Source of the DNA: Chthonomonadales bacterium | Lineage (GTDB): Bacteria; Armatimonadota; Chthonomonadetes; Chthonomonadales; Chthonomonadaceae | Length of the DNA stretch: 19,077 nt | Direction: 5' to 3' | NCBI GenBank assembly: GCA_038217285.1 | Contig: JBBQPO010000101.1 | Coordinates: 1-19,077, forward strand | In this document: one piece after another, positions 1,402-19,077 of the stretch | Layout of the letters: every line of letters begins with the position of its first letter | How positions within the stretch are numbered: position 1 is the first letter of the stretch | Notes under the pieces: generated by a model | Told to the model about the DNA's origin: nothing | Databases searched by the model: none | What the model saw: only the letters and a program-made list of their open reading frames with translations | Made by a program: the position numbers and the translations under genes

Positions 1402-1522
1402 GGCCGCCAAAAGCCGCAGCCCGTGTACCACAAATCAGGTATTCTTAGGACAGATCTATACATGGGCACGACACTGGAATGTGTTCCCCTTCAAGTGACC
1501 GAGAGAAACAAAGGTAAGAAGC

Positions 1523-2140
1523 TTGACGATCATAGACGATGTTTTTGCGCTCTTTGCGGAGCGGGGTGCGGATGCCTATTTCGGAGAGCCTGTCTCGCAG
1601 CTAGAACACGCGTTGCAGACGGCTCATCTGGCCGAACAGGCGAAGGCGTCGGACGCGCTTGTCGTCGCTGCCCTGCTGCACGATATCGGGCACCTGATCC
1701 ATGGCGAGGCGGAGGACGTCGCGGATCAGGGCGCTGACGCGCGACATGAGGCCGCCGGGGAAGCCTGGCTGCGCCGCTGGTTCGGCGAGGAAGTGACGGA
1801 ACCCGTTCGACTGCATGTCGCCGCGAAGCGTTATCTCTGCGCGACCGACCCCAGCTATCTGATCCGGCTCTCACCCGCTTCACGACAGAGCCTCGCGCTG
1901 CAGGGAGGACCGTTCGACTCTGCCGAGGTGCAAGCGTTCGAGGCCAATCCGCACTACGCGGCGTCCGTGCGTCTGCGTCTCTGGGACGACTCGGCCAAGA
2001 TTCCAGGCCTCGACGTGCCAGGGCTCCAACACTATCGCGTACGCCTGGACGCTGCTGTGCGGCACGACAGAGATGCTGGAGGAAACGGACATGAACGTAC
2101 AACTTGTGGTGTTCGACATGGCGGGAACGACAGTTTATGA
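1523..2140 (+). CDS. phnZ: Phosphonate degradation-associated HD-domain oxygenase (PhnZ-like)
   Basis: Motifs YFGEPVSQLEHALQ, ALLHDIGH, RHE, LHVAAKRYL, LSPASRQSLALQGG and LRLWDDSAK. TTG start. The C-terminal tail overlaps the next gene by 50 nt. Confidence 0.88.
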   Translation: MTIIDDVFALFAERGADAYFGEPVSQLEHALQTAHLAEQAKASDALVVAALLHDIGHLIHGEAEDVADQGADARHEAAGEAWLRRWFGEEVTEPVRLHVAAKRYLCATDPSYLIRLSPASRQSLALQGGPFDSAEVQAFEANPHYAASVRLRLWDDSAKIPGLDVPGLQHYRVRLDAAVRHDRDAGGNGHERTTCGVRHGGNDSL

Positions 2141-2264
2141 CGGAGATGCCGTCAATGTTTGCCTTCGGGGCGCCCTTCAGGCCGCGGATATAGAGGGGAT
2201 ATTTTCACCCGGTTTGACACAGACTTCTCTGGATGTTCATCCGGCCTCGACAGTCCTACTATGA
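2091..2264 (+). pseudogene. Truncated phosphonatase-like HAD hydrolase (PhnX-like), N-terminus only
   Basis: SD GGAGG upstream. MNVQLVVFDMAGTTVYDGDAVNVCLRGAL contains HAD motif I in the PhnX form (FDMAGTT). Resemblance is lost after about 33 aa and the frame stops at 57 aa, whereas full enzymes exceed 200 aa. Confidence 0.8.
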
Positions 2265-2279
2265 TAAAGGAGACCGACC

Positions 2280-3629: not shown

Positions 3630-3721
3630 CATTCCTTCCCCCTGCTCCCGATGTCACCCTGACCACCGGCACGGGCGGGACAGAAGGCTGTGGCAACGTC
3701 CTCTCCTTGTGCCCAACAATC

Positions 3722-3754
3722 TGCGAGCCGCAGAGACTATCTCTGCGGCTCGCA
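3722..3754. terminator. Perfect 15-bp hairpin between convergent genes (possible bidirectional terminator)
   Basis: TGCGAGCCGCAGAGA-CTA-TCTCTGCGGCTCGCA between the MFS stop (3629) and the gdh stop (3784). U-tracts are weak on both strands. Confidence 0.55.
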
Positions 3755-3783
3755 ACGATTTCTGTAGGGAGGACGACCAGGAG

Positions 3784-5118
3784 TTACGGGTAGATGCCGC
3801 GCAGGGTGCTGGCATCGGCGACGCGTTTGACGCCGATAAGGTGGGCGGCGAGCCGCATATCGACGTTTTCGCGTTTCGCCATCGTCCGCACATCCCGATA
3901 GGCGCGCACCATGATCGCTTCCATCTTCGCGTTGACCTCCTCCTCCTGCCAGAAGAAGAACTGCAGATCCTGCACCCATTCGAAGTACGAGACCACGACG
4001 CCGCCGGCGTTCGCCAGCACGTCCGGCACGAGGAACACGCCTCGTTCGTGCAGAAGGCGGTCGGCCGCAGGCGTCGTAGGGCCGTTGGCGCCTTCGATGA
4101 TGATCGGAGCCTTGATCCGGTCGGCGTTCTCGGCAGTGATCTGATTCTCGGTGGCGGCGGGAACCAGGACGTCCACATCCAGCTCCAGCAGTTCGCGGGT
4201 TCCGATAGGATCGCCTCCACCGTGGGTGGTCAGGGTGCCGTCGCGATTGGCGCACTCACGGAGGGCGGTGATATCGAGCCCGTCCGGATTGTAGAGGCCG
4301 CCGAGGGCATCGCTGACCGCCACAACTTTCGCGCCCATCTCCGCGAAGATACGCGCGGCCACGCCGCCGACGTTGCCGAAGCCCTGCACCGCCACGCGCA
4401 GGCCGCGCAGATCGAGACCGGACTCGCGGATCGCCTCGCGGGTCACGAAGACGATGCCGCGCCCGGTGGCGTCGTTGCGCCCCTCCGAGCCGCCGACCGC
4501 GACCGGCTTGCCTGTCACGACGGCAGGAACGGTGCGGCCCTGCGTCATGGAGTAGGTGTCCATGATCCAGGCCATCGTCTGCGGGTTGGTGCCCATGTCG
4601 GGCGCAGGAATGTCGGTGGTGGGGCCGATGACGATGCTGATCTCCGAAGCGTAGCGGCGGGTGAGGCGTTCGAGTTCACCGAGGGAGAGCAGTTTGGGGT
4701 CGCAGACAACGCCGCCTTTGGCGCCGCCAAAAGGGATATTGACGAGCGCGCATTTCCAGGTCATCCACATCGCCAGGGCGCGTACTTCGTCGAGATCGGT
4801 GGTGGGGCTATAACGGATTCCGCCTTTGCTGGGGCCTCGCGCTATGTTGTGCTGCACACGGTAGCCGGTGAAAACCTGCGTGTCGCCCTTGTCCGTCTTC
4901 ACCGGGAAATGAACGGTCAGCTCGCGCTGCGGGTATTTGAGTATCTCGTGCATCCCGGGATCGAGTTCCAGATAGCGGGCTGCGATATTGAGTTGTTCCA
5001 ACGCATTGTGATACGGGTTGCTGCTTTCGCGCGGTAATCCCTCCCGCACCGGGGCTTCCGGCAAAGGCGGGCGCGATTTTTGGTGCGCCTCGTCGGGACG
5101 TGAGAGTGCAGGGCTCAT
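3784..5118 (-). CDS. gdhA: Glu/Leu/Phe/Val dehydrogenase (glutamate dehydrogenase)
   Basis: Motifs GPSKGGIRY, MTWKCA, GGAKGG, DIPAPDMGT, VVTGKP, QGFGNVG, EGANGPTT and PDVLANAGGVVVSYFEWVQ. The ATG at 5118 is preceded by SD GAGGAGG. Confidence 0.95.
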   Translation of the reverse strand: MSPALSRPDEAHQKSRPPLPEAPVREGLPRESSNPYHNALEQLNIAARYLELDPGMHEILKYPQRELTVHFPVKTDKGDTQVFTGYRVQHNIARGPSKGGIRYSPTTDLDEVRALAMWMTWKCALVNIPFGGAKGGVVCDPKLLSLGELERLTRRYASEISIVIGPTTDIPAPDMGTNPQTMAWIMDTYSMTQGRTVPAVVTGKPVAVGGSEGRNDATGRGIVFVTREAIRESGLDLRGLRVAVQGFGNVGGVAARIFAEMGAKVVAVSDALGGLYNPDGLDITALRECANRDGTLTTHGGGDPIGTRELLELDVDVLVPAATENQITAENADRIKAPIIIEGANGPTTPAADRLLHERGVFLVPDVLANAGGVVVSYFEWVQDLQFFFWQEEEVNAKMEAIMVRAYRDVRTMAKRENVDMRLAAHLIGVKRVADASTLRGIYP

Positions 5119-5466
5119 CGATTCCTCCTCGAACCTGGATAACGACACGGCCGGTTGTTCAGGGAAGAGCGGTCTCTCGATTCCCGTCGGCCTCGCTGCC
5201 GACGGCCACTGTCCGGCTCTATGTCGCCTCTATACTATTCCTACGCAGAACGCAGGGCAAGCATTACCCGATGCCACAGTTATCAAAAATGGTTTTGTTC
5301 CTTCCATCATTCGGTTTCAAACAGAGGAGTTTCCGTACCTACGGTGAATTTCAGACTGTGTGCGACTCTATTGGACGCCGCAAACTCGCCAATACCCTCG
5401 AAGGAAGGCCCACCGAAAAGATCCGCCTTCCAGCGGGCCATAATTCTAACGCAAGGAAAACAGAAA

Positions 5467-5865
5467 ATGTCAGACAACCATGATCCTCTTGAAGAAGACG
5501 AGGCCGATGTTGACCCAGCTTGGGCCCGAAGAAAAGGTCCACTCCTAATCGTCGTGGTAGCGGGTGCACTTCTCGCCTTGAATCACTACGAAGCGACAAA
5601 TAACGGCAAAGTATACCTCTGGATCGTCCTTATGGCTCCCCTGTTCTTTTGTCTTGGCGTAGGTGGACTAATCGATCCACGCCTCTCTTTAGCGATGGGA
5701 CCGCAAGGGCGACATTTCCCTACAAAGATCAAGGCTCTTGGTGGGCTGCTGGTTGCCGTCGGTATGATCGCATCGGCCTATCTTGCGCTCGGCGTCTATC
5801 GTCTGCAAGAGCCGGCAACGAGCCAGCCGGCCGTCAGTCAGGACCTGCCTGGTTCCTCACGATGA
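5467..5865 (+). CDS. Hypothetical membrane protein (about 3 TM helices), 132 aa
   Basis: AAGGA upstream of ATG 5467 (MSDNHDPLEEDE...). Acidic N-terminus followed by three hydrophobic stretches. The 5' part of track ORF 5155.. looks non-coding. Confidence 0.65.
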   Translation: MSDNHDPLEEDEADVDPAWARRKGPLLIVVVAGALLALNHYEATNNGKVYLWIVLMAPLFFCLGVGGLIDPRLSLAMGPQGRHFPTKIKALGGLLVAVGMIASAYLALGVYRLQEPATSQPAVSQDLPGSSR

Positions 5866-6342
5866 AGCTGCCAACACAATGAATTCCTCGTCGCTGCCCA
5901 GCAGGCGCAGGGTTTTGTCGTCACGCTCACTGCGATAGTACTTCGCGAGCAGGCGATCAAACACAGAGTCCGCCGGTGAGACGCACGCGAACAGGGTCGC
6001 ACATGACTTCAGCTTGAGGTCGTCGGGGGCCCCGAAGATGTCTATCGCGGATCGGCCCTCGGTGCGAACGACCGCTTCCGCACACTCTGTCAGCCTCGTT
6101 CCCAGGATGGAATGACTCAGGTACGCCTTCGCCTCTGCGAGGCTTTTTATCGCGTAGTGCTTGGAGGTCGAACTGAAAGCGAGCCCGTCGATCTGCGGGA
6201 AGATGTACCATATCCAGTGGGAGCGCTTCCGGCCGCTGTTGATTTCCTGGAGCGCCTGATCATAGGCGTTGTCCTGAGCCTGCAGGAAGCGGCTCAGGTC
6301 GTATGGGTCGTCCATGCTGTGAGATTCGTTCGAGTTGATCAT
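5857..6342 (-). CDS. DUF1810 family protein
   Basis: Motifs DDPYDLSRFLQAQ, ALQEINSGRKRSHWIWYIFPQ, EAKAYLSHSILGTRL and IFGAPDDLKLKSCATLF. The start at 6342 overlaps the upstream stop (ATGA); an alternative start is MDDPY at 6315. Confidence 0.85.
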   Translation of the reverse strand: MINSNESHSMDDPYDLSRFLQAQDNAYDQALQEINSGRKRSHWIWYIFPQIDGLAFSSTSKHYAIKSLAEAKAYLSHSILGTRLTECAEAVVRTEGRSAIDIFGAPDDLKLKSCATLFACVSPADSVFDRLLAKYYRSERDDKTLRLLGSDEEFIVLAASS

Positions 6343-6620
6343 GCTGTTCTCCGCGCACGTCCGGCACCAAAACGTCGTATGTAGCCATAATCCACACGGG
6401 TCATCCAGGTTTGTGCGTCCGGGATGCAAGCCACAAGACGGTCTCCTGCAACAATTTCGTCAGCGTCCATTTCCCACGCAGCCGTTTCGATGTCAATCGC
6501 AACGTATGCGCCTTTGTGATCTGCCTCGACATGGGCGCGAATATTACGTTCGTAGATTTCGGTACCTAATCGGGCAGCCTCTTCTTGGGTGTAGCGAGGT
6601 TGACGTACTAACATAACCAT
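6339..6620 (-). CDS. Small conserved hypothetical protein (family usually adjacent to clan AA aspartic proteases)
   Basis: SD AAGGAGA. RQPRYTQEEAARLGTEIYE...GAYVAIDIETAAWE...PDAQTWMTRV matches a small-protein pattern I recall from cyanobacteria and Planctomycetes. Confidence 0.75.
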   Translation of the reverse strand: MVMLVRQPRYTQEEAARLGTEIYERNIRAHVEADHKGAYVAIDIETAAWEMDADEIVAGDRLVACIPDAQTWMTRVDYGYIRRFGAGRARRTA

Positions 6621-6752
6621 GTCTCCTTAACTGACCGTCTGGACGTGCGCTATACGAAGCTGGATCATCCCTCAAAAGAGCGTCCGGGCTCTCTCACAGT
6701 TAAGCAGCAGCCCAAGCAGAAATAGGACGGTGCTGGTCCGCTACCGACTAAA

Positions 6753-7778
6753 TCATCGCGAAACAGGACGTTCAAGGGGGAATAAAATAATGACTCGCGC
6801 CCCCCCTTGCTCCCGATTCTCATAAGCGATCTCCCCTTGCAGGTCGTAACGACTGATGGTCTCCACAAGTTCTACGCCCGTGTTGGCGGAGGTATGCGGA
6901 TCAAAATCGGGCGGGAAGCCTTCCCCTTCGTCCCATACCTCCAACCGGCCATGATTCACTTGAAGGGTGAAAACGATGCCGATGGTTCCCTTCCCATGTT
7001 TGGTAGCATTGCTCACCAACTCGTTTGTCAGAATGGCCAGAGCGGTCGCCTGTCTCAGGGGCAGGGAGATATCTTCGACTTGAAGCTCCAGTTTCCTCCC
7101 AATGCTCATTCCCTGCAAGAGAGGAAATAACTTTTCCAGGGTCTCCCGGACAGAGATCGTTTCGGCCTCTCCACCTTCTTTGGTTTGATGGGTCAGAATA
7201 TCATGAATCGCGGCGAGGCCACGCACATGCTGGCTCAGACGCATCAGTTCCGATTTAGGAACCATCTCCTCGTGCATTCCTATCTGAATATCTATCAGAG
7301 CCGAAATGATCTGCAGGCTGTTCTTGACGCGATGATGCGTCTCCGTCATGGCCTGTTGGAGATGATGGTTGAGCGATTTGATGCGGGACTGAGCCTCCTC
7401 CGCCATCCGACGGGCGTTCAATATCTCATCCTCGAACTGGCTGCGTTGGCGCACAACTATGAAAACACAGTCGTTGACAGCAGTCTGATTTCTCTCACGA
7501 CGGAGAGCATTCACCAGCACGGGTAACTCACCGCCTTCCGCCGTGCGGATCGCAAAATAGACCTCCTCGACATTGCCGGTGAGTTTGAGCAGAGGAAAGA
7601 AATGAGTCTGATAAAAGATGCGGCTTGCTATGGGCAGGAGTGTCTCTATGTGCTTTCCAGTCACCGCATCCGGGGAATAGCCGAGCCATGTCAGCAGCGT
7701 CTTATTGGCGGCAATAATAACGCCATCATCGGAGAAAGAGAGGAAGCCGCATGGGGCGCTATCGAGGAGTGAATCCAT
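6753..7778 (-). CDS. PAS-domain sensor histidine kinase (HisKA_2/HWE-like)
   Basis: RsbP-like PAS (LLDSAPCGFLSF...RIFYQTHFFPLL), H-box ETHHRVKNSLQ, N-box NELVSNATKHG and G-box DEGEGFP. Confidence 0.9.
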   Translation of the reverse strand: MDSLLDSAPCGFLSFSDDGVIIAANKTLLTWLGYSPDAVTGKHIETLLPIASRIFYQTHFFPLLKLTGNVEEVYFAIRTAEGGELPVLVNALRRERNQTAVNDCVFIVVRQRSQFEDEILNARRMAEEAQSRIKSLNHHLQQAMTETHHRVKNSLQIISALIDIQIGMHEEMVPKSELMRLSQHVRGLAAIHDILTHQTKEGGEAETISVRETLEKLFPLLQGMSIGRKLELQVEDISLPLRQATALAILTNELVSNATKHGKGTIGIVFTLQVNHGRLEVWDEGEGFPPDFDPHTSANTGVELVETISRYDLQGEIAYENREQGGARVIILFPLERPVSR

Positions 7779-7783
7779 ATCGT

Positions 7784-8608
7784 TTATTTACTATCACTTG
7801 CTTTCATGTCGCTTAAATAGCTCTGTATCTCTCGGATGATCTCTTCCGGATGGCTCACGTGAGGACAGTGTCCTGTCGCCTCCAGCAAGCGCAGCGTGCT
7901 CTGCGGTAGATGGCGATGCAGGTAGTGACCCACCTCTACCGGAGCGATCAAGTCCTGAGCGCCCTGCAGGATCAGCGTCGGCACAGATACCAGAGGCAGA
8001 TCGCTTCGGTTATCGCCGAAGAAGGTGACCTCCGCGAAGCGACGTGCGATCGTCGGGTCTGTAGAACAGAAGCTCTGTGCCAGCTCCGCGCTCTTCTCCG
8101 GCTGCTCTGGATTACCCATTACGAGGGGAGCAAGGTAGTGCGCCCAGCCCATATAGTTTTTGTCCATCATCGCCAGTAAGGCCTCGATGTCCTTGCGCTC
8201 AAAACCTCCGATGTAGTCAGGCGGAGCGTTCAGGTAGCGAGGGGAAGGGCCGACAAGGATCAGGCAGTCAAAGCGGTGCGGTTCACGGATGGAGGCAAGC
8301 ATCCCGATGATGTTGCTCACCGAATGCCCCACGAAAATGACATCCGACAGGTTCAGGGCTTCACAGATATCGAGTACGTCCTGCACATAGCCATCGAGAC
8401 TACCATATCGCTCGGGACTATACTGGGAGAGGTCCGACTTCCCGGCCCCCACGTAGTCGAAGAGGACAATCTGGTAGGCTTCTTCAAAGGCTGGGGTAAG
8501 GAAGCGCCACATGTTTTGATCACACCCGAAGCCATGCGCGAACAACAGGGTTTGCGCGCCGTGCCCGAAGATGCGTACGTTATTGCGCGCCAAAACGCCT
8601 TGAGTCAT
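7784..8608 (-). CDS. rsbQ: RsbQ-like alpha/beta hydrolase (KAI2/D14-related)
   Basis: Motifs RNNVRIFG, FAHGFGCDQNMWR, nucleophile GHSVS, GPSPRYLN, SFCSTDP, QDLIAP and ATGHCPH. The ATG at 8608 has SD GAGGGAG. Confidence 0.9.
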   Translation of the reverse strand: MTQGVLARNNVRIFGHGAQTLLFAHGFGCDQNMWRFLTPAFEEAYQIVLFDYVGAGKSDLSQYSPERYGSLDGYVQDVLDICEALNLSDVIFVGHSVSNIIGMLASIREPHRFDCLILVGPSPRYLNAPPDYIGGFERKDIEALLAMMDKNYMGWAHYLAPLVMGNPEQPEKSAELAQSFCSTDPTIARRFAEVTFFGDNRSDLPLVSVPTLILQGAQDLIAPVEVGHYLHRHLPQSTLRLLEATGHCPHVSHPEEIIREIQSYLSDMKASDSK

Positions 8609-9036
8609 CTCTCCCTCTTCCAGGGCATCGTCGTGTGATGCAAAAAACAGATTGCCTCTGCGCTCGGGCAGAGGCTGCGGCAGCGAAAAAAGTATAACTA
8701 CCGATATCGCCTCTATTTTGAGCGTCGGGGATGGTTGCCTAGTTCTCTTTACAGTGGGCAAACACCTGCAAAATTTCAGGTATCACAACCCTATAACTTG
8801 CAGGCAGACGCCGCACCTGGACGGTTGGTTCCTGGAAATGTAAAATTTCCAGGGGTACATAGCTATGACTAAGCTTGCATTCGCCTCATTGAAGGTCGCT
8901 GATACAAATGATCCTATACATGATGAAGGCACATAACTGTCTCATAAATTCATGCCAGGAGTATAGTGGTCGGCTTTAGGCAGGGGAGGAAGGCACACAA
9001 GGGATAAGGGCTGAAGGGTGAGAATTGATTCATCCC

Positions 9037-12000
9037 TTATTTAGACACCGCCTTGTGATTCAGGGTGAGCGGCACGCTTCCGGTCGTGGAGACGGCTACT
9101 CTCCAGATCTCCACGACGTTCTGTGCGCGCAGAATCCGTACACCCTCCGGGCGTTCCAGCGCCTCCAGTGCGCTGCCGGTCAGTTCAAATTCCCGTGTTT
9201 CCGCATCATAGTAGATGTCGAGAGCGCGGCCGAGAAAACGGAGGTTTCGAATGCCTCCCGTATGCTCTGGAGCGATGAGTTGCGGCAGACCTTCTCCGAA
9301 GTCCAGGCCATTGTGCCAGAAGACACCGTCGAGCAGATGGGCCGCTCCCCCCATCTCGGGGAAGACACCGGAAGGCTGAGGTGGGAAACCGCCGAGATAG
9401 GTTTCCGCATACTCCCCGGCCAGGGTGATCTCCCGCATTCCGGCCTCCGCCATCATTTCGGCTTCATGCGTTAATCCCTGCCGCGAGACTTCGCGCATCA
9501 TCTTGCTGTAACGAGGAAAACCGAGGATGTCCGGCCCGAGAAACGGCATATCTTGTGGAACAGAGGCCCGAAATACGGTTTGTAAGTAGCCTGTCTCCGC
9601 AGGAGTTAGAATCCCAGGAGGAAGCGCCCAGCCATGGAGCATGCCCAGGCGGTTCACCCACTCACGGCGTCCAGTGTCCGGGTAGAACTTATGGGCCTGC
9701 TGATTGGGCCGGGGCCAGAACCGCTGCTTATAGAGCGCGGTCAGGGTCTGGCTCTGCGCCCGCCAGAAGGCCCTTTCGGCAGGCAATCTCAGAGCGGCTG
9801 TTATCTGCTTGAGATAGTCCATGTCGGACAGCACGTACGCCGTGAATCCCCCATCCTTCTGGTCGGGTGGGGTGGAGTTGTAGTAGATCCAGCGTGGATC
9901 GCTCTCCTTCCACAGCACGAACTTCTTGAGAGCAGGATAGACCTGACGCAACAGGTTCTCATTGCCGGTCGCCTGATAGAGGGTCCAGGCCGTCTGGGCA
10001 GCGATGCAGAACAGCCCCTCCCCCTCCATCGATCCGTCTGCCTCCACCAGCGACATCATGCCCTGGAAGGCGGCCCAGGCCGTATCCGGCGTGACCCAGG
10101 CCAGGTACTGCATGGCGAGAAAGCTTTCGTACTGCGAGGAGCCGCGCGCATGGGGCGCCCCCTCCTTCCACAGCGAGGCCTTGCCGATAGGGTATTGCGG
10201 GTAGGCGAAGCCGTTCTCCGGTTGGGGCGGCAGGAGATCCGAGAGGAGATAGACCCAGGCCCGGTAGTAGGCGCGGCGGATCGATTCCGGCGTGGAGCCT
10301 TTGCGGTCGATGCCGGTCAACTGGAACTGTGCCGGGCGGGGAACGCGCGCCAGCAGATCGTTCCACTCCGCTTCACGCAATTTGAGCGCCTCACGAATGG
10401 CGGCAGGCCGCGCCACGTCCGGTGCGGGTGGCGCCTCGGCACTGTCGGCCGCCGAAAACCGCGCGGTGACGCCGACTTCGTCGCCCGCTTGCAGGTCTTC
10501 CAGTTCGACCGCCCAGATGCCGTTCCTGGCCAGAGGGTCGGGGCGGCTCTCCGCAAAGTCTGTCCAGGTCGGATAGAACCCCAGGAATCGGCCCGGCCGA
10601 CTGATCACAATATCGGCCCGATAGGAGGGAGCGTGTATCGAAAGCGTGTGCGTATTCGGATTCCAGGCGGCTTGCCCCTGTGTGATGTCTCCACTAAGGA
10701 CCAGACTTACAGGACCATGCGTCCTGGCAATACGCAGGAGTTGAGAGACTGCCTCCACATCGTGAAAACCCACGGTGCTCTCCAGCTTGAGGCCACTCCC
10801 ACTCTCGGCTTCCTGTACAAGCTGGTGCGGGGACCAGCGCACGGGCCGACCGCTCAGAGCCAGACTGTCCGGACCAGTGCCGACAAAACGCATGTCGGTG
10901 GCCGTCACCGTCGTCCCCTTCTTGAACACAACGAGTTTTACCAGAAAGCTGCGATTTCCGTGCCACCCGGTCGCTTCTCGAATGTTGTAGCAGAAGGTTC
11001 CCGAGGCGGTCACGTCGGGCTGGATATATCTGTGGGCGGGCTCGTCTTTCGCCTGGACCAGGAGCGCCCAGTTCCCGGTCGCATGTTCCACGCGCAGCAG
11101 CAGAAAAGGCGTCTGGTCGAGATCGACATGCACGGAGGTCAGGAGAGTACCGGAAGAGGGGCTGGTAGACTGTACCCGCACCCGGCGGTTCCCCCAGGCA
11201 GACGTCGCGTTCTCCGTGTGCCAGTTCGCAGCGCGCTCCGACGAGAAGCCGAGAGCGGTCGTGTTGCGGAAGAGGCCGCTGCGGGCAGCGGTCGGTATCC
11301 ACCCCCAGAAGAAGGGCAATCGGATGGGGATCTCCCCGGCGTGGTAAGCGAGGTGCATGGGCAGTGCGAGCAGATCTGCCTTACCTTTGAGAGGCGGCAC
11401 AGGCATTACGGGATGAATCACGAGACGGCTGTTCGGATGCGTCAGCCAGAACGAACGGGTTTCGGGGTCCGCCAGGCTCTCGCAATCGACTCCGTCCGAC
11501 TTCGGGGCCAAGGCCACCTCGGTCTGCGCGGCTCGGGTGAACTCTGTCCGCATGCCCTGCGCGCTTACCCCTAATCGGCCTACATGGATCGCTGCGCCAG
11601 GGAAGGCATACCGCACACGCCATAGAATCGTGCCGGTCGTTGAAGCGATCTCGCCTTCGATCTCCTTCGCCCGCAAGGAGAGTCGTAAGCGATAGGTCTC
11701 CCCCCGTTTCCAGACAAACGGTTGGTCCAGCTTCTCCGTGACGGTATAGACAGGTTCCGGTGATCGGACCGCATCTGGCCCCACACGCAGCTCCGTATAG
11801 CGGCCTTTGCCATCCGGCGTCTCTACCAGGTCCAGCCGCCAGAAGTTGGTTGAATCGAAATAGAGACACAGTCCGGCCAGACTCCAGCCTGTTCCGACTC
11901 GCTCACCAGGGGTGACATCGACCGTCACCGTCTGGACGGGAGCCAGCAGCGTATCCTCTCGCAGAGCGAACGCGCGGTTCCCTTCAGGAACGGCGCAACG

Positions 12001-12225
12001 CAAGGTGTCGCCCGTGCTGTGCCAGTCCCCACCCTGGGTACGCCAGGAACCTACCGTCTCGGCGATAACGGGCGCAGCGCTGCCGGGACTCACGGGGCCA
12101 TAAACCAGCGCAGCAAACAGCAATAGCCTGCCGACGGAGACTCTGTTAGAGAAATCGTTCCGGCGCTTCCATCCGCTACCGAGGGACAAAATGAGAATTA
12201 CCTGCCCGAGATAGAATATGCACAT
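9037..12225 (-). CDS. Large, probably secreted, multi-domain carbohydrate-active protein (beta-rich N-terminal domains plus (alpha/alpha)6 glycoside hydrolase-like C-terminal domain)
   Basis: 1062-aa ORF with a basic/hydrophobic signal-like region (RLLLFAALVYG...SAA). The C-terminal half (YYRAWVYL, ESFLAMQYLAW, AWTLYQATGNENLLRQVYPALKKF) resembles GH63/GH37/GH15-like folds. Start position uncertain. Confidence 0.7.
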   Translation of the reverse strand: MCIFYLGQVILILSLGSGWKRRNDFSNRVSVGRLLLFAALVYGPVSPGSAAPVIAETVGSWRTQGGDWHSTGDTLRCAVPEGNRAFALREDTLLAPVQTVTVDVTPGERVGTGWSLAGLCLYFDSTNFWRLDLVETPDGKGRYTELRVGPDAVRSPEPVYTVTEKLDQPFVWKRGETYRLRLSLRAKEIEGEIASTTGTILWRVRYAFPGAAIHVGRLGVSAQGMRTEFTRAAQTEVALAPKSDGVDCESLADPETRSFWLTHPNSRLVIHPVMPVPPLKGKADLLALPMHLAYHAGEIPIRLPFFWGWIPTAARSGLFRNTTALGFSSERAANWHTENATSAWGNRRVRVQSTSPSSGTLLTSVHVDLDQTPFLLLRVEHATGNWALLVQAKDEPAHRYIQPDVTASGTFCYNIREATGWHGNRSFLVKLVVFKKGTTVTATDMRFVGTGPDSLALSGRPVRWSPHQLVQEAESGSGLKLESTVGFHDVEAVSQLLRIARTHGPVSLVLSGDITQGQAAWNPNTHTLSIHAPSYRADIVISRPGRFLGFYPTWTDFAESRPDPLARNGIWAVELEDLQAGDEVGVTARFSAADSAEAPPAPDVARPAAIREALKLREAEWNDLLARVPRPAQFQLTGIDRKGSTPESIRRAYYRAWVYLLSDLLPPQPENGFAYPQYPIGKASLWKEGAPHARGSSQYESFLAMQYLAWVTPDTAWAAFQGMMSLVEADGSMEGEGLFCIAAQTAWTLYQATGNENLLRQVYPALKKFVLWKESDPRWIYYNSTPPDQKDGGFTAYVLSDMDYLKQITAALRLPAERAFWRAQSQTLTALYKQRFWPRPNQQAHKFYPDTGRREWVNRLGMLHGWALPPGILTPAETGYLQTVFRASVPQDMPFLGPDILGFPRYSKMMREVSRQGLTHEAEMMAEAGMREITLAGEYAETYLGGFPPQPSGVFPEMGGAAHLLDGVFWHNGLDFGEGLPQLIAPEHTGGIRNLRFLGRALDIYYDAETREFELTGSALEALERPEGVRILRAQNVVEIWRVAVSTTGSVPLTLNHKAVSK

Positions 12226-12274
12226 CCGTTACGGTAGCTCCTCTCCTAAATAGGCTGATGGAGGCAACTTTGAG

Positions 12275-12463
12275 TGGGGTGAACTCCTGTCCGACGTAGC
12301 CGTTATACCCGATAGCAGTACTGGCCCGCATGATGGCCGAGTAGTTGAGCTCCTGACTATCGTCGATTTCGTTGCGGACGGGGTTGCTGGCGGTGTGGAA
12401 ATGGCCGATGTACTGGATATTGTTGCGTAGTGTGCGGATAACGTCGCCTTCTATTTGCTACAT
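12275..12463 (-). pseudogene. hyi: Hydroxypyruvate isomerase (xylose isomerase-like TIM barrel) 3' remnant, copy A
   Basis: Absent from the ORF track. The minus strand reads M*QIEGDVIRTLRNNIQYIGHFHTASNPVRNEIDDSQELNYSAIMRASTAIGYNGYVGQEFTP, which matches the Hyi C-terminal region. It has an internal TAG and no 5' portion. Confidence 0.8.
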
Positions 12464-12512
12464 GCATACAAACATGCAGAAGCTCGTTCAGTTCTTTCGT
12501 AGTTTGGGTTCA

Positions 12513-12616
12513 CGGGGTTGAAACCCCGCGCTGAAATGGGAAGTCCGCCGTCGCGGACTCAATGCATCCAACCTGCGAAGGCAGGTTTACCATATCAGAA
12601 CGGCAATTCATTGCCG
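12513..12616. repeat. REP/REPIN-like multi-hairpin element
   Basis: Four 7-bp hairpins: CGGGGTT-GA-AACCCCG (12513-28), AGTCCGC-CGTC-GCGGACT (12542-59), AACCTGC-GAAG-GCAGGTT (12570-87) and CGGCAAT-TC-ATTGCCG (12601-16). CTGAAATGG and CCATATCAG can pair around the two inner hairpins. Confidence 0.65.
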
Positions 12617-12715
12617 GGAAAAGTACGAACAAACTATGAGCCACTAATTAGCAATCGACTAAGGCCATGCCATCTGGCCTTATTTATAGGCGTCGCAGAA
12701 TGCGCACTCTTTGTG

Positions 12716-13720
12716 CTAAGGTTTATCTCCCAGTTGGTCCAAACGCTGGCGCAGAGTTTCAATGGTCCTTTGTGTAGCTGGATCAACAGCACCTGTTTCA
12801 TAAGGAGGAATATCGAAATCCCCGGTCTCTATCGCATTAAATATTCGTTTTAAGAGATCGCGAAAAGCCTTCTCGGCACGATCTGCATACCTATGCAAAG
12901 TTTCGAGTTGCTGTGGAGTAAAAAGTGCTAAGGTTGGGTGACCAATATCTATCGAGTTACGGAGCAACATCGAAGGAATGAAATCTCTTTCGATTTCTTC
13001 AGTGGTATATTTCAAGTCTGCCAACGCTGTCCTCACTTGATCTCGGTTCGGACCATATAGTATTTCCAAGACCTTGTAAAAGTTGAGCAAAGCTTCTGCT
13101 AAAAACTCTCCTGGCATTTTTCCTTCGCGTTTCACTCGGCAAGCAACATAAAAATAATGCAAGGCAGCGATTAGACGCCTGCGATGTGGTGCAGCCAGTA
13201 TGTCGAACCGGTTCCATGCTGTGGCAAACTTCTGCTGCTGGAGGTCTTGGGTGGTGATATTTACTTCTATGCGCCAATCTGACAGTTCCCATCGAAACAG
13301 CACGGATCCTATTTTGCCATCCACTCGTTCTACAAATGGCGGATCTGCGAACTCTAAGGCAAGTAGAAGTGGCAGTCCAAAATACAGGGATTCGAGCACC
13401 TCAGTGAACTTCGTGTTATCCTCGAAATGTTCTTTGATCGTAACGCAATTCCCCTCCAAGGTAATGCGCCGAATGGGTTCTTCAATTTCAACCTCCAGTG
13501 GTGCCAGTGGCGAACTACATTCAACAAAGTGCTGGCCTGTATTTGCATTGAACAAAACCCTGGCGTGTTGGGATTGTACAGTCGTTAATCCACCACCTGG
13601 TGCTTTCCCAAATGGCTGGAGTGGCTGAAAATGCAATGACACCTCGACATCAGCGGGAAATTGGGGAGGGCGATTCCCTATAATGCGTAACACCCTTGGC
13701 CTTACCTGATATGTAAACAT
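12716..13720 (-). CDS. HEPN-motif protein (ApeA/MauJ-like), putative RNase effector, 334 aa
   Basis: SD GAAAGGA 5 nt before ATG 13720. The helical C-terminus has ALHYFY...ALLNFYKVLEIL...LLRNSIDIGH (R-x6-H, 12938-12961). Visibly lower GC than the flanks. Confidence 0.65.
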   Translation of the reverse strand: MFTYQVRPRVLRIIGNRPPQFPADVEVSLHFQPLQPFGKAPGGGLTTVQSQHARVLFNANTGQHFVECSSPLAPLEVEIEEPIRRITLEGNCVTIKEHFEDNTKFTEVLESLYFGLPLLLALEFADPPFVERVDGKIGSVLFRWELSDWRIEVNITTQDLQQQKFATAWNRFDILAAPHRRRLIAALHYFYVACRVKREGKMPGEFLAEALLNFYKVLEILYGPNRDQVRTALADLKYTTEEIERDFIPSMLLRNSIDIGHPTLALFTPQQLETLHRYADRAEKAFRDLLKRIFNAIETGDFDIPPYETGAVDPATQRTIETLRQRLDQLGDKP

Positions 13721-13805
13721 CAGCATCCTTTCAATTAGACGTCGCAGATGCGATAAGCCATCTCCAGACTGATGGAGGCATCCTTGACTGGACTGACCTC
13801 CTGAC

Positions 13806-13975
13806 CTCCTGCCCGACACATCCGTCATAGTTAGTAGCGGCGATTGCCCGCATGATGGCCGGGTAATAGAGTTCCTGCCACTCGTCGATCTCATGCCTGC
13901 CGGGCACTCCCGCCGTGTGGAAATGGCCGATGTGTTTGATGTCCTGAAGTATGCAGGAAATTACATTGCTTCGAT
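13806..13975 (-). pseudogene. hyi: Hydroxypyruvate isomerase 3' remnant, copy B
   Basis: Reads IE(G, apparent 1-nt deletion)NVISCILQDIKHIGHFHTAGVPGRHEIDEWQELYYPAIMRAIAATNYDGCVGQE, inside track ORF 13731..14030. The flanks are unrelated to Hyi. Confidence 0.85.
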
Positions 13976-14004
13976 CACAGGGCATTTTCATACACAGACT
14001 ATCG

Positions 14005-14667
14005 CTACATATTATCGACAAGTGCCGCAAACCTCGAAAAGACGGGATCAGCGGGATCGAAGAGACCCCTGCCCGACTTGAACGCCGTGTGAAGTTCCTT
14101 CAACGGTTCGCGATGCGTTGAGAGCCAGCTATAGAGCCGCGCCTTTGTCTTCGAACCAAACGGAACGGGGTCACAAATATCCAGGCAGGTAATCAGGTCT
14201 TCCACGCATGCACGATGGTCACTCATGGCGACCGCTCGCCAGAGCAGGGCTTCAAGGTCACCTTCCGTACCAGGATCGGGCATAATCCAGACGCTCCATT
14301 GCCGCCCCTGGCTATCTCCAAACCATTGATCCGAAGTCACTTTTGGTACTTCTTCGCCCAGGCCAAGCGCCCATTGTGTAAGCGCACTTTGAACTGCGGT
14401 GGCCGGATCATTATCGGCATCTCGCACAATCGCGACGCGCTTAATCTGATCGTACCCTTCGACGGCACGTATCGTTTGAAGTTCCAATCGCAGTTGATTT
14501 TTGCCTTCGTAGACATGAATTTGAACATCGTCTCGCGGACGTAAGAAGCGAAAAAAGTGAAACTCATCTGGTCCTTCGACAAGCAGAAGATTGGGAGAAG
14601 TGAAGGTCTCCCGATTATAACGGCGAGGGGAATTGTCTGCGCCTTGTGAAGTTCCAGTGCGTCTCAT
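14005..14667 (-). CDS. DUF3226-like TOPRIM-fold protein
   Basis: TOPRIM-type motifs LLLVEGPDE and IVRDADND, plus GDLEALL and KTKARLYSWL. Overlaps the ATPase stop by 4 nt (ATGA). Confidence 0.75.
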   Translation of the reverse strand: MRRTGTSQGADNSPRRYNRETFTSPNLLLVEGPDEFHFFRFLRPRDDVQIHVYEGKNQLRLELQTIRAVEGYDQIKRVAIVRDADNDPATAVQSALTQWALGLGEEVPKVTSDQWFGDSQGRQWSVWIMPDPGTEGDLEALLWRAVAMSDHRACVEDLITCLDICDPVPFGSKTKARLYSWLSTHREPLKELHTAFKSGRGLFDPADPVFSRFAALVDNM

Positions 14668-15761
14668 CGAACCTCCAAACCGCTCTCCAGCGCACGCCCA
14701 AGCATAGCATGATCGAAAGTATGAATGATCACCTCACCGTCCGTTCTACGTTCTAAACGGTGAACGCGCAGAGCGTCAGGAGTCTCGATGAACGCTTCGT
14801 GAATCGCATGGATACAGTCATAGCTATGCGTCGTCGCCCAAACTTGAGAATTATAGACATTGACGGCAGAAACTACGGAGCGCCACACCTGGGGAAGCAT
14901 GGAATAATGGATGCCGTTGTCGACTTCATCGATGAGACAGATCCCGTTTTTGGCCGCTCCGATTGCGGAGAGGATCGATATCACATTGCTGAAGCCATCT
15001 CCCATATTCTCAAGGGGAAGAGTACGGTCAAAGCCCAAGTCCGCCTCCAACACCGCAGTGGGGGAAATTACCTCGCCGCGTTCCATTGTCAGCACTACCA
15101 GGGAACGCAAACGCGGCTCGATCTCCCTGAGGAGACCGAGTAAAATTTCCACGCCGCCGCTTCGGTAAAGTTGCGAATAGCGACGCGCATGGGACCAGGC
15201 CTCCGCTCGGTTTGTCCCCAGCCAAACAAGGATTGGCACCTCCGGGAAACTTTTTCCGCTAAATTGCCGTTGAGACCGAGCAGGGAACATACTGCGGCCT
15301 TGCAACGGTTGTCGAATAATCGCCTTCGCTTGGTCATCCGCCGTGACTTCAACCACAATTTCGCGCCCCGGCTGTAACAGAGACTCGCCATCTTCAGAAG
15401 CATCGCTGTCGCTCTCCAAATCGAAGGGCAAAGCCTCTTGACCCTTAACTTCTCGAATCACTGCCTGAGCAGAGAGCTCTATTCCGCTGACAGTGCCATG
15501 GATCAAAAGAGGATTCGTGCTGTGCGTTTGATAGAATGCCAGCTGATAATCCTGCGACAAATCCGTCGGCCGGCGCTCTACGCGATTCCTGGTCGCTCTC
15601 CGTAAGTGCCTTGGATCACCAGACAAGAGCACACGTATCGCCTCAAGCAGGCTTGTCTTCCCTGTATCGTTACGTCCAACGATAAGGTTGACGCGGCTTG
15701 CATCTGTCAAGGAAAGTTCGTTTAGGCCTCGAAATCGTTCTATATGAAGGCGCGTCAGCAT
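14664..15761 (-). CDS. ABC-type ATPase (AAA_15/AAA_21-like)
   Basis: MLTRLHIERFRG start, Walker A GRNDTGKT, signature-like MGDG, Walker B ICLIDEVDNG and H-loop TTHS. No TM segments. Confidence 0.9.
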   Translation of the reverse strand: MLTRLHIERFRGLNELSLTDASRVNLIVGRNDTGKTSLLEAIRVLLSGDPRHLRRATRNRVERRPTDLSQDYQLAFYQTHSTNPLLIHGTVSGIELSAQAVIREVKGQEALPFDLESDSDASEDGESLLQPGREIVVEVTADDQAKAIIRQPLQGRSMFPARSQRQFSGKSFPEVPILVWLGTNRAEAWSHARRYSQLYRSGGVEILLGLLREIEPRLRSLVVLTMERGEVISPTAVLEADLGFDRTLPLENMGDGFSNVISILSAIGAAKNGICLIDEVDNGIHYSMLPQVWRSVVSAVNVYNSQVWATTHSYDCIHAIHEAFIETPDALRVHRLERRTDGEVIIHTFDHAMLGRALESGLEVR

Positions 15762-15930
15762 ACTTTCCCCATCCATCAAGAGCCATTTGCCACTTCAAAC
15801 TCCCATGAAGTGGTAGCGGACTCAGCGTAAAATGCGAATTCGGGGCAGCGGTCCCGTGTGCTATCACGGCTAGGGTTCGACAAAACAACGTAAAATCCTG
15901 CTGTTGTCAGAGGCCCAGTCATGAAGAGCG

Positions 15931-15948
15931 AAACGGACGTTTCCGTTT
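15931..15948 (-). terminator. Short hairpin after the ABC operon
   Basis: AAACGGA-CGTT-TCCGTTT immediately after the permease stop codon, with a weak U-tract. Confidence 0.3.
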
Positions 15949-15949
15949 G

Positions 15950-16837
15950 TCAATCTTTTATCCCGCTCAGGGCGATGCCTTGAATGATATTGCGTTGAAA
16001 CAGCAGAAAGGCCACGATGACAGGAAGCGTGCAGAGCACGCTGGCGGCCAGCGTCAGGCCGTACTCTGCGTAGTAAGAGGTCTGAAACAGCGCGATCCCG
16101 ACCGGCAGCGTGTACTTGTCCACCGAGTCGAGATAGACCAGCGGCCCGAGGAAATCGTTCCAGGAGCCGATGAAGGTGAAGATGCCCAGGGTGGCGAGCG
16201 CAGGTCTGGAGAGCGGGAGCAGGATATGCCAGAAGATCCCCCAGCGCGAACAGCCGTCGATAGCCGCGGCCTCTTCCAACTCTTTCGGGAGGCTGATGAA
16301 GAACTGATGCAGCAGGAACACCCCGAACGCCCCCGCGCCCGCCGGAATGATCAGCGCGGTCGGCGTGTCCAGCCAGCCCAGCCGATTCAGGATCAGGTAG
16401 ACCGGAACCAGCAGGATCTGGCCGGGAACCATCATCGTCGCGACAACGGCGCCGAAGACCCATTTTTTTCCCGGCAGATCCAGCCGGGCGAAGGCGTACG
16501 CGGCCAGAGAATCGACCGTCAGGACCAGCAGCGTCGCCGCCGAGGAGATAAACAGGCTGTTGCCGAACCAGCGCACGATCGGAATCTCTTCCGGGCTACC
16601 CAGAATAGCGCGGAAGTTTGCCAGGGTGGTCGTGCGTGGCAGCAGGCCGTGGAAGCGCACGATCTCCGAGTCCGGTTTGAAAGCCGTGATGAGAATCAAC
16701 ACCATGGGAAAGACGAACAAGAGCGCCCCCAGGGCCACCAGCCCTTCATAGAGCCACAGTTGCCGCCTCGCGCCCGCATGGTTCCCTGCCCCATTCGCTT
16801 TCTTCGACGCGTGATTTTGCGGATCATCTGTCAGCAT
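15950..16837 (-). CDS. Carbohydrate ABC transporter permease (MalG-like)
   Basis: EAA motif LPKELEEAAAIDGCS, plus AAYAFARL and FIGSWNDFLGPL. TGATG coupling to the upstream permease gives a start at 16837. Confidence 0.93.
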   Translation of the reverse strand: MLTDDPQNHASKKANGAGNHAGARRQLWLYEGLVALGALLFVFPMVLILITAFKPDSEIVRFHGLLPRTTTLANFRAILGSPEEIPIVRWFGNSLFISSAATLLVLTVDSLAAYAFARLDLPGKKWVFGAVVATMMVPGQILLVPVYLILNRLGWLDTPTALIIPAGAGAFGVFLLHQFFISLPKELEEAAAIDGCSRWGIFWHILLPLSRPALATLGIFTFIGSWNDFLGPLVYLDSVDKYTLPVGIALFQTSYYAEYGLTLAASVLCTLPVIVAFLLFQRNIIQGIALSGIKD

Positions 16838-17709
16838 CACCGCTCCCTCATCAGGCGGAACTGCGCCAGGGAAAAGACCGCGATCACCAGAAACAGCAGC
16901 CAGCTTAACGCCGCCGCGTACCCCATCCGGTAGTTGTTGAAGGCAGTCTCGTAGATATACTGGACCAGCGAGCGGGTGCTCATCTCCGGCCCGCCACGCG
17001 TGATCATAAAGGTCTGTCCGAACACCTGAAAGGCTCCGATGACGTTGATGACCACGACGAACAGCAGCACAGGGCGCAGCAGCGGCAGGGTTATGTGGCG
17101 GAAGCTCTTCCAGCCCGTCGCGCCATCCAGCGCCGCCGCCTCGTGGTATTGCGGGGGGATGTTCTGCAGCCCCGCCAGCAGCACCACCATCGGCCCGCCC
17201 ACGGTCCACCAGAGGGTCATCAGAACGATGGAGATCATGGCCCAGTGCGTATCCGTCAGCCAGGGAACCTTGATTCCAAAGCGGCCCAGATAGGCGTTGA
17301 ACAGCCCGAACTCGCTGTTATAGAACCACCGCCAGAGGATGCCGGCCACACTGATGGTGAGGATAGTAGGCGTAAAGTAGGCGGCGCGATAGAAGGCCTG
17401 CCGTCGGCCGGGCAGCGACTTCAGCCCAACCGCGATCAGCAGGGCGAGGCAGACCGTGAGCGGAACCGCGAGCGCCACAAACTTGAACGTCGCGACCAGC
17501 GATTTCCAGAAGTAGGGGTCGCGGACGGCTTCGGCGTAGTTCCCCAGGCCGGCGAACCGCGGCTGAAGCCGCGAGAGCATCTCCCAGCGGAACAGGCTCA
17601 AGCGGAGCCCATACAGCAGCGGAAGGACGATAAACATCCCGAACAGCGTCAGGTAGGGCAACGCGTAGAGGTAGCCGGACCAGCGGCGCAGCAGACGGCT
17701 GCGGGTCAT
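16837..17709 (-). CDS. Carbohydrate ABC transporter permease (MalF/UgpA-like)
   Basis: EAA motif LAGLQNIPPQYHEAAALDGA, plus ITLPLLRP, FQVFGQTFMITRGGP and MGYAAALS. Confidence 0.93.
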   Translation of the reverse strand: MTRSRLLRRWSGYLYALPYLTLFGMFIVLPLLYGLRLSLFRWEMLSRLQPRFAGLGNYAEAVRDPYFWKSLVATFKFVALAVPLTVCLALLIAVGLKSLPGRRQAFYRAAYFTPTILTISVAGILWRWFYNSEFGLFNAYLGRFGIKVPWLTDTHWAMISIVLMTLWWTVGGPMVVLLAGLQNIPPQYHEAAALDGATGWKSFRHITLPLLRPVLLFVVVINVIGAFQVFGQTFMITRGGPEMSTRSLVQYIYETAFNNYRMGYAAALSWLLFLVIAVFSLAQFRLMRER

Positions 17710-19004
17710 AGCTCTCCTCCCGACCCGGCGTTACGCTCGCGCGCCAGGATCGTGTTGATGTTGGCGGTCGCCATGTCCAGCGCCTCCTGCGGCGTGGCGC
17801 TCCCCCGCAGCGCCTTCTCGACGGCGTTGTTGAACTCCGTTTGGTACTCGAAGATGAAAGGCAGTCGCGGCAGGTAGACGACATAGGGTATCTCACGGGC
17901 GAACGCGGACTGCACGGCCATCGCCTTAAACCTGGGCGTCTCGCGCAGGCTCTTGCGGACCGGTATCTGGCCACCGGCGGCCCAATCCAGGCTGTTGTCC
18001 GAGAGGAACTTGATGAAGCGCCAGGAGGCCTGCAGTTCCGGTCCCTGGAGATCGCCGCGCAGACAGAGGTTATGCGAACCGGCCCAGACCGCCCGGTGCT
18101 CTCCCACGTCCGGCGCGGGCGCGCCGCCGAAGTCGAGGTCCTGCTGCTTCTGCAGATCGGCCAGCATATAGATTCCTTCGAACACCATGCCGATTTTGCC
18201 CTGTCGAAAGCCGATCCAGGCGTCGTAGTTCTCCGGCGGCGGGGCGTACTTGTATTTTCGGATCAGATCCACGCAGAACTGAAGCGCAGCGACGTTGCGC
18301 GGGCCGTTCATGATGCAGTGCGCGTAGTCCGGCGTGAAGAACTCGCCGCCGAACTGCAGCATAAAGCTGTAGACGTTCGATTCGAAGTTGGTGAAGACAA
18401 AGCCCCACTGATCGGGCTTTCCGCCCGACGCGGGACGCGTCAGTTTCCGCAGGGCCTCTAAAAACTCGGCGCGGTCCGCGGGCGGCTTCGGCTCTCCGCG
18501 CGCATCCACGATTCCGGCCTCGCGGAACAGGCGACGGTTGTAGTACATGCCCATCGGCCAGATGTCGAGCGGCGCTCCGTAGTGTTTGCCAGCAACGGCA
18601 ACCCCCTGCCAGATATTGGCGTCGATGTCGCGCACGTCGATGCCGTTAGGCTGCGCGCATAGATCGTCCACGCCGCGCACGAAGCCGGATTTGGCAAAAC
18701 GGGGAATGGCCAGCGTCTGCAGCACGAAGACCTCCGGCGCGCGTCCGCCGAGTCCCGCCACGAACAGCTTATTGTAGTAGGTCGCCCAGTCCATGCGCTG
18801 CATCAGCACATCGACATCGGGGTTCTCCTGGTTGAAGCGTTTGACCAGGCGTAACATGGTACGACCGTCCGGCCCGGTGAACCCGTTCCAGAAGCGGACC
18901 GTGACCACCCGCCTGCTGCCCGGCCGGCATCCTGTAAAAGAGGAAGTCAGCAGTGCCGACGCCATCAGGAGTAGTATAAGCGACGTTTTATGAAGAGTAT
19001 GCAT
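17706..19004 (-). CDS. Carbohydrate ABC transporter substrate-binding lipoprotein
   Basis: Signal peptide with lipobox-like FTGC; motifs FWNGFTGPDG, FNQENPDVDV and MYYNRRLFREAG. ATG at 19004 after GAGAGGG; ATGA overlap with the permease. Confidence 0.92.
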   Translation of the reverse strand: MHTLHKTSLILLLMASALLTSSFTGCRPGSRRVVTVRFWNGFTGPDGRTMLRLVKRFNQENPDVDVLMQRMDWATYYNKLFVAGLGGRAPEVFVLQTLAIPRFAKSGFVRGVDDLCAQPNGIDVRDIDANIWQGVAVAGKHYGAPLDIWPMGMYYNRRLFREAGIVDARGEPKPPADRAEFLEALRKLTRPASGGKPDQWGFVFTNFESNVYSFMLQFGGEFFTPDYAHCIMNGPRNVAALQFCVDLIRKYKYAPPPENYDAWIGFRQGKIGMVFEGIYMLADLQKQQDLDFGGAPAPDVGEHRAVWAGSHNLCLRGDLQGPELQASWRFIKFLSDNSLDWAAGGQIPVRKSLRETPRFKAMAVQSAFAREIPYVVYLPRLPFIFEYQTEFNNAVEKALRGSATPQEALDMATANINTILARERNAGSGGEL

Positions 19005-19077
19005 CAGCGCCCTCTCGAACATTCGCTGTTGAACCGCTATTATCCTTCGCATGTTGGCGTGTGAATCGAGTTGCTCA

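Follow-up and report, generated by a model that had tools for sequence, protein, structure and literature searches.

What accounts for two diverged copies of the end of a single gene on one small contig, each next to defence-like genes? The question is raised by a stretch of 19,077 nucleotides from a Chthonomonadales bacterium (GenBank assembly GCA_038217285.1; Armatimonadota, Chthonomonadaceae), hereafter the window, which spans positions 1-19,077 and thus the whole of contig JBBQPO010000101.1 (C101), one of the 459 contigs of its genome (G000). An initial annotation of the window had proposed that hyi, an isomerase gene, acts as an attachment anchor at which anti-phage cargo accumulates. This proposal is borne out among relatives by a 5′ boundary common to hyi fragments and by the variable, defence-rich cargo that lies between them. 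The window probably holds part of a tandem array at a fixed hyi site, the GA dinucleotide of codon 176; the likely builder is a large serine recombinase that related autonomous elements would provide in trans.

The hyi 3′ ends and their common boundary

The two remnants lie on the minus strand, 1522 nt apart, where they had been placed earlier. The NCBIfam Hyi/OtnI models match both of them (remnant A, E 1.6e-12; remnant B, E 4.4e-08), both match the intact hyi on contig C207 of the same genome at E about 1e-28, and both are confirmed as 3′ ends of a hyi-like isomerase gene starting at about codon 176. The two exact blocks that they share (12393-12411 and 13915-13933; 12324-12339 and 13846-13861) were read again at these positions. 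The initial annotation had counted 33 identical residues in 57; an ungapped recount gave 31 of 57, the low identity itself being upheld, and with a local DNA identity of 73% as well, the duplication is indeed not recent.

Remnant A (12251..12469, minus strand) was located correctly and drawn too short, as it continues to 12251 and spans codons 173-243 of the intact gene h207 on C207. It is an attR/attB-like junction (att, attachment site) composed of a left arm with the motif GTATGCA at 12469-12463, 18 nt from the centre, the central GA at 12451-12450, and a host-type hyi 3′ part that is 81% identical to the own end of h207. Remnant B (13735..13993, minus strand) had been read as ending at the residues GQE; instead, it reaches the hyi stop at 13735 across a frameshift caused by an 8-nt duplication. 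It resembles a decayed attP, with a 45-bp imperfect palindrome at 13949-13993 and an element-type right arm that carries the patch described below and leads into the hyi 3′ copy, which is 84-86% identical to element-type 3′ ends of G001, a genome of the window's genus. The 1522-bp unit between the remnants has recognisable att sites at both ends.

In G000, two intact hyi-like genes are present, h207 and h72 (contig C72), together with two further fragments on C166 and one on C315. The window itself contains no intact hyi and no integrase, and in the G000 assembly it may belong behind either h207 or h72. Full-length hyi searches covered 41 relatives and the 42 genomes of the family Chthonomonadaceae, and many partial matches begin at residues 162-177. 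When 28 loci with partial matches were scanned with a nucleotide profile built from 45 intact hyi 3′ ends, 45 rows were obtained at E 1e-5, of which one, an intact gene cut by the locus edge, was dropped. The remaining 44 fragments come from at least 18 of the 42 family genomes and from three metagenome contigs, and 26 of them start within codons 171-179, three further 5′ and 15 further 3′, so that the shared breakpoint expected by the initial annotation is present. Further hyi fragments were found in two other families. Two 5′ or internal hyi pieces, at L036 6827-7171 (G020) and L037 11939-12142 (G010), are unlike the 3′ fragments.

The fragments form arrays, the deepest of which, in G051, consists of an intact hyi followed by six fragments within 19 kb. 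The units are 0.6-6.5 kb long (16 measured), a few intervals in G009 being larger. By profile score, the copy nearer the intact hyi is better preserved in eight of the 11 multi-copy arrays, with one tie. The genes upstream of hyi vary among relatives and none is a recombinase, and the near-complete assemblies G007 and G015 have no fragment behind hyi. At L106 (contig C20 of G001), an h72-type gene lies beside a GH43-like/ATP-binding cassette (ABC) block sharing 91% identity with the one that follows a C166 fragment of G000 (L003), possibly an empty-site allele. The gene behind h72 (L002 1-202) and a long open reading frame (ORF) that ends before the C315 fragment (L004 1-778) are possibly one broken unit; the start of the former, a short piece with no Pfam match, we take to be SIR2-domain-like.

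In the fragments, a short non-coding left arm is joined to hyi at about codon 176. On the other side of the GA, a right-arm patch encoding D-V-I-S-C/S-I occurs in 10 of the 45 distinct intact hyi genes, from three families and of both paralog types. Among these carriers, which were selected on six of the 23 bases concerned, identity reaches 94% over the 23 nt to the right of the GA and drops to 48% over the following 23 nt; the corresponding values for the other 35 genes are 69% and 64%. The hyi gene on contig C509 of G001 is 82% identical to h72 and 60% to h207 before the site; after it, the values are 66% to h72, 78% to h207 and 78-87% to the other paralog type. The 3′ ends of hyi have been exchanged. 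As a separate observation, the patched hyi at L047 4739-5497 (G046) shifts frame right after the right arm and seems to regain it later.

The same cargo with the same left arm is followed by a host-type right side in G045 and by an element-type right side in G008. It follows that each left arm moves together with the cargo preceding it, and the mobile unit described in the initial annotation as cargo plus hyi 3′ end is more aptly taken to be a hyi 3′ copy with its downstream cargo and a short left arm. In each distal fragment, the hyi portion is likely that of the older resident.

The best case for an attP is predicted in G347, where the arm motif starts 23 nt to the left of the GA and the mirrored motif ends 23 nt to the right, giving a 48-bp site. 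For four congeners of G347, the alignment with the G347 fragment begins at the crossover and that with the G347 intact gene 40-49 nt beyond it, the pattern that attR and attL should give. Two other site types were considered and dropped. Comparison with the Xer consensus by eye revealed no Xer-type inner repeat that a dif/XerCD site would have, and a tyrosine integrase acting across a 7-bp overlap, to which the odd, 43-bp symmetry of cassette junctions had pointed, does not fit the even symmetry of the G347 site.

Cargo between the hyi copies

In the window, remnant B, a HEPN-type gene, a repetitive extragenic palindromic (REP) element and the arm of remnant A form one unit, the 1522-bp one. 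HEPN nucleases carry the motif R-x4-6-H, and the product of the gene at 12716..13729 (minus strand, 46% GC) has R-x6-H, with R254 kept in 52 of 52 aligned homologues and H261 in 51 of 52. The name HEPN given to it earlier thus agrees with a conserved motif, while no PADLOC match was found, the match to MauJ is weak and the best E in a PDB sequence search is 0.02; the product is likely a HEPN-type nuclease, as predicted from these residues. The gene has 286 database homologues and was found in one of the 42 family genomes. The multi-hairpin repeat at 12489..12652 (no strand) is REP/REPIN-like as had been noted, with 30 BLAST matches on 20 contigs of G000 and a folding z of -4.2, and is a passenger outside the att system. 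A general role of such elements at junctions was rejected, none being present at the other junctions fetched.

Further upstream lie the genes of an ATPase (14664..15761, minus strand; AAA_15/AAA_21) and, adjacent to it, a DUF3226 protein (14005..14667, minus strand). This is the pair described earlier as an ATPase and a TOPRIM-like protein. The best PADLOC matches are PDC-M38A for the former (E 6e-50) and PDC-M38B for the latter (E 3e-11), so the pair matches a PADLOC candidate system and is predicted to be anti-phage. It recurs between two hyi fragments in G054, which belongs to another genus, with identities of 62% and 68%. In the window, the pair and the arm of remnant B make up the distal end of a second unit, which has lost its own hyi copy.

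Variable cargo flanked by hyi fragments, rich in defence genes, is seen across relatives, as anticipated. The best PADLOC matches include Septu A and B in G046, G216 and one metagenome contig, HEC-01 in G019, G014 and G054, Shedu in G045 and a retron-type reverse transcriptase in G057, and NYN and HEPN proteins also occur. Two hyi fragments flank a four-gene Cas I-B operon at L058 (contig C115 of G006, 224-6551), and toxin-antitoxin-like pairs are found among the cargo between hyi copies. One unit of an antitoxin-like gene with an HNH gene is 88% identical between C166 of G000 and a metagenome contig. Small, related antitoxin-type ORFs occur in the window at 6339-6620 (minus strand; no Pfam match) and at L004 1141-1353, one member of the pair being positioned just behind the C315 hyi fragment.

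At E 1e-8, PADLOC matches were obtained for 31 of 53 cargo proteins (46 of 100 script-called ORFs plus seven seen earlier) and for 4 of 48 ORFs upstream of intact hyi, a comparison that is weakened by the hand-picking of the 53 and not of the control set; if all script-called cargo ORFs are taken and the unscanned ones counted as misses, 26 of 100 match. Of the 31 matching genes, 27 share the orientation of hyi, the strand that the ORF caller favoured. The hyi units appear to be rich in genes of predicted anti-phage function. Because the gene-end repeats delimit the cargo exactly, any unannotated gene that they enclose is a good candidate for a new anti-phage system.

The recombinase, the proposed mechanism and its rivals

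The right-arm patch was searched for as a pattern in 401 genomes of the phylum, and seven matched, including G347 and G399 from outside the family. In G347, the displaced fragment adjoins a divergent large serine recombinase, which is intact (657 aa), shows Resolvase, Recombinase and zinc-ribbon matches and starts about 30 nt outside the fragment arm. Its homologue beside the hyi fragment of G399 shows the three domains as well and is 72% identical, frameshifted and followed by a relaxase (Replic_Relax) and a coupling protein. The homologue in G001 is 68% identical, lies 4.3 kb behind a patched and restored hyi and is cut by the contig end, the domain matches being found for its assembled C-terminal half. 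In a quick tree, these three recombinases and five database proteins without context form one clade (SH-like approximate likelihood ratio test, 99). An intact hyi with an integrase, which the initial annotation had suggested looking for, thus exists in relatives, outside the window.

No hyi was found near homologues of 29-34% identity. Distant homologues at L137, L143, L132, L130 and L136 share an N-terminal extension with the hyi recombinase, adjoin truncated comM-type and ComF-like genes and apparently represent a wider Armatimonadota recombinase family. The serine recombinases on C20 of G000 and C7 of G399 were considered and found unrelated to the hyi clade. C20 (L075 and 29755-36579) resembles an integrative and conjugative element, with tyrosine and serine recombinases and a coupling protein and no link to hyi; it also bears what we take to be a relaxase-like gene and an E2-like gene pair. 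Viral contigs gave no locus in scans with the hyi C-terminus, the right-arm pattern or the recombinase. Phage records matched hyi at low identity only, with four records under 60%, and the best 30 of 265 plasmid records showed full TIM-barrel or hyi genes (one unannotated), likewise at low identity.

These observations suggest a mechanism in which an incoming circle would bring an attP of ~48 bp and, behind it, a copy of the final ~77 codons of hyi. Recombination at the GA would make hyi complete again and displace the former 3′ end to the far side of the cargo. Further rounds of entry would produce a stack of units, each measuring 0.6-6.5 kb and comprising a hyi 3′ copy, cargo and an arm of ~20 nt, with the newest probably in front. 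An integrase is missing from most units, which would depend on the enzyme of a visiting autonomous element. Mosaic 3′ ends and deletions probably also arise through RecA exchange between the 240-bp repeats. Since intact genes often carry the element right arm and a swapped 3′ end, integration appears to repair hyi instead of breaking it. The units of the window look non-autonomous because such a recombinase was found neither in the window nor elsewhere in G000.

A more far-reaching form of this proposal is possible, and we hold it only tentatively. The arrays may constitute an integron-like system without a resident integrase, in which mobile defence cassettes use a coding 3′ end as their repeat and are handled by a visiting serine recombinase. 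The left-arm motif at attB spacing would mean that each insertion leaves a better-than-native landing site, so that the array grows while the gene stays unbroken. If so, such arrays would offer new anti-phage genes within exact limits, the gene of the HEPN-type protein of the window being an example.

Several points weigh against an array built in trans by this enzyme. The hyi-clade recombinase was not found in G000 and is absent from the window, and its close clade was found in only one of the 42 family genomes. The array in the window has no link to any intact hyi in the G000 assembly, and no hyi trace was found upstream of the window ATPase. The attL and attR of G347 are on separate contigs, and so are those of G399. 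The far copy scores better in two of the 11 multi-copy arrays. As for the cargo, several PADLOC matches concern generic domains (ankyrin, WD40, HNH), and a part of it is not defence-like (sulfotransferase, BNR, DUF1552), some being metabolic.

The spacing of the arms is a further difficulty. The left arm of G399 measures 22 nt instead of 23, and in seven of 24 integrase-free junctions, including remnant A, the left motif lies 18 nt from the GA and not 22-23. These seven come from five genera, and shuffles give 0.005 per junction for this offset, which had been noticed before the shuffle test; four junctions have a motif match at -14. The 18-nt spacing is that of attB, so that such a junction would resemble a new attB, a product not expected of canonical attP x attB recombination, which does not explain the entry of such units. 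Possible origins of the spacing are a single ancestral deletion of 5 bp, a relaxed enzyme or another route by which cassettes enter. By eye, the host half-sites at the 5-bp-shifted position match the motif in four of seven bases on the right and poorly, in two of seven, on the left.

It is unlikely, in our estimate, that the units decayed in place, each being the stump of its own autonomous serine-recombinase element that entered hyi and afterwards lost all that lay between the first cargo genes and attR, the small units never having moved by themselves. This is the route published for cis-mobilizable elements (CIMEs) in the available part of PMC5704250, and autonomous relatives exist (G399). 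The element in G001 is compact and already interrupted by insertion sequence pieces, and the G399 recombinase is frameshifted. However, independent deletions should leave some recombinase remnants, and tblastn at E 0.01 detected none of the hyi clade in the array loci (up to L119), so that the expected intermediates were not found there. Moreover, the same compact cargo with tight ends recurs across genera, as in the antitoxin-like and HNH unit (88%) and in Septu (G046, G216 and the metagenome contig).

Homologous recombination alone seems more improbable still. It would start from one ancient site-specific event, after which RecA would excise and re-insert circles through the 240-bp repeats, the boundary being inherited. 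The mosaic 3′ ends agree with it, as do the many arrays with a host-type right arm at every junction, and a fragment of G020 is 90% identical to the 3′ end of the window's genus and 73% to its own gene. Only two matches to tyrosine recombinases were obtained in each of five array-bearing genomes, and five are without a resolvase match. Homologous recombination alone is opposed by the switch from host-type to element-type within ~10 nt of the GA in 10 of 45 intact genes, which span three families and both paralogs, by the contrast between G045 and G008 in the right arm behind the same cargo and left arm, and by the identity of only 70-85% among the copies.

Decayed tandem hyi paralogs, or a chance duplication with unrelated genes between, could be imagined from the 15 of 44 fragments that are eroded with scattered starts and from the two 5′ hyi pieces, and are already contradicted by the common boundary and the shared non-coding arm motif (seven of 24 junctions at one offset, against 0.005 in shuffles), as well as by the non-core cargo and the adjacent recombinase clade, so that almost no credence is left to them. 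The initial annotation had named decayed paralogs, differing breakpoints and invariant core cargo as grounds for giving up its proposal, and none of them appeared.

Known systems and the neighbouring genes

The accretion of integrase-free elements is a known process. In the text available of PMC5704250, CIMEs accrete in tandem at a gene end, with ICESt1/ICESt3 as the paradigm, and the hyi units are like them in that they lack an integrase, keep att sites, pile up at one gene end and would rely on autonomous relatives. Among the matches listed, none on the array contigs is to a recombinase family, and arrays and recombinase-bearing elements were not observed on a shared contig. The text of PMC5704250 ties gene-preserving integration at 3′ ends to tyrosine recombinases and describes site-specific integrative and mobilizable elements with serine recombinases as disrupting their target. 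By contrast, the hyi site would pair a serine recombinase with restoration of the gene through replacement of 77 codons, and its units are small (0.6-6.5 kb) and stacked up to six deep. Gene repair by means of a long replacement end, a trait of tyrosine integrases in PMC5704250 as far as available, is linked to a large serine recombinase in the hyi case; among the literature matches listed, none describes a serine recombinase with gene restoration.

A restored gene with a displaced 3′ fragment, of the icd/e14 type, is present at hyi. In Escherichia coli, e14 integrates at icd/icdC and an element-borne C-terminus replaces the coding 3′ end (PMC13626634, available part). As at hyi, integration takes place inside a coding gene and yields a replacement C-terminus, a displaced C-terminal pseudogene and chimeric alleles (PMC13626634). 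Unlike e14, a single prophage, hyi has many stacked units, a serine recombinase and no phage genes among the annotated cargo. It shares with large serine integrases a three-domain enzyme next to the att site, an attP of ~48 bp, inverted motifs round a central dinucleotide and a coding target. For LI/A118, the attP motif occupies half-site positions 16-24 and is shifted 5 bp inward in attB, according to the available text of PMC3783163; unlike there, the motif has attB spacing in some hyi cassette junctions, and the difference between 23 and 18 nt bears on the directionality of serine integrases. The targets in the large survey of PMC10083194 are described as disrupted in the part available, and hyi is not named in its main text or eight supplementary files, where targets left unnamed in sequence tables would be missed.

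Compact, mostly co-oriented cassettes of anti-phage and toxin-antitoxin-like genes, usually best preserved at the near end, are shared with the defence-cassette integrons described in the accessible part of 10.1101/2024.07.02.601719. Unlike in integrons, no integrase adjoins the hyi array and the repeat is part of a protein-coding gene; no attC-type GTT core was seen by eye at the hyi junctions, no dedicated attC scan having been run. Integrase-only defence islands at hotspots of E. coli, whose means of transfer is called unclear in the part available of PMC10121019, likewise place defence cargo at a fixed chromosomal spot. They differ in that most hyi units have no integrase and each is delimited by a gene-end repeat.

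The literature searched, which included few subscription papers, contained no mention of hyi as an integration site in the parts available, and the supplements of 10.64898/2026.01.13.699239 may list relevant att sites. Searches for AP_endonuc_2 with integrase returned only unrelated work, those for PDC-M38/DUF3226 returned no literature, and no Armatimonadota islands were among the best 12 of 213 matches listed. We could not find this target gene and enzyme class described for CIME-type accretion; new at hyi are the target, the unexpected enzyme class, the deep arrays of compact, defence-rich units and the spacing anomaly. For a defence hotspot whose units mostly show no mobility gene, in a phylum that has been little studied, the proposal offers a mechanism, an enzyme and a crossover to the base pair, and a new candidate integrase whose predicted att pair is aimed at a widely conserved motif. 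We presume that the e14 integrase is of the tyrosine type.

On both sides of the array fragment, the window contains genes whose relation to it may be read in two ways. The sugar ABC operon (15950..19052, minus strand) forms the upstream context and is either cargo or flank. The large gene at 9037..12225 (minus strand), downstream of remnant A, is the oldest resident of the array or flank, and its product has a weak six-hairpin glycosidase match under the curated cut-off. Contigs from three other studies (X2, X3 and X4) cover the glycosidase-like and ABC genes without the HEPN-type gene, those of X4 also leaving the ATPase pair uncovered, although such non-coverage proves nothing, and none of them joins across the 1522-bp unit. 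One X2 contig jumps back from 1592 to 1396 on the intact hyi as a tandem copy would; its likeness is 82% and it may come from another organism.

Two loci near the start of the window concern other subjects. The stretch 1523-3629 (plus strand) comprises an HD-domain gene, a truncated ORF of 63 aa, presumably HAD-like, and a major facilitator superfamily transporter, and resembles a decayed phosphonate-type locus. The AhpC/TSA-family ORF at 588-1115 (plus strand) has a single in-frame TGA, in the context W-U-P-V-C, which we take to be that of a likely selenoprotein.

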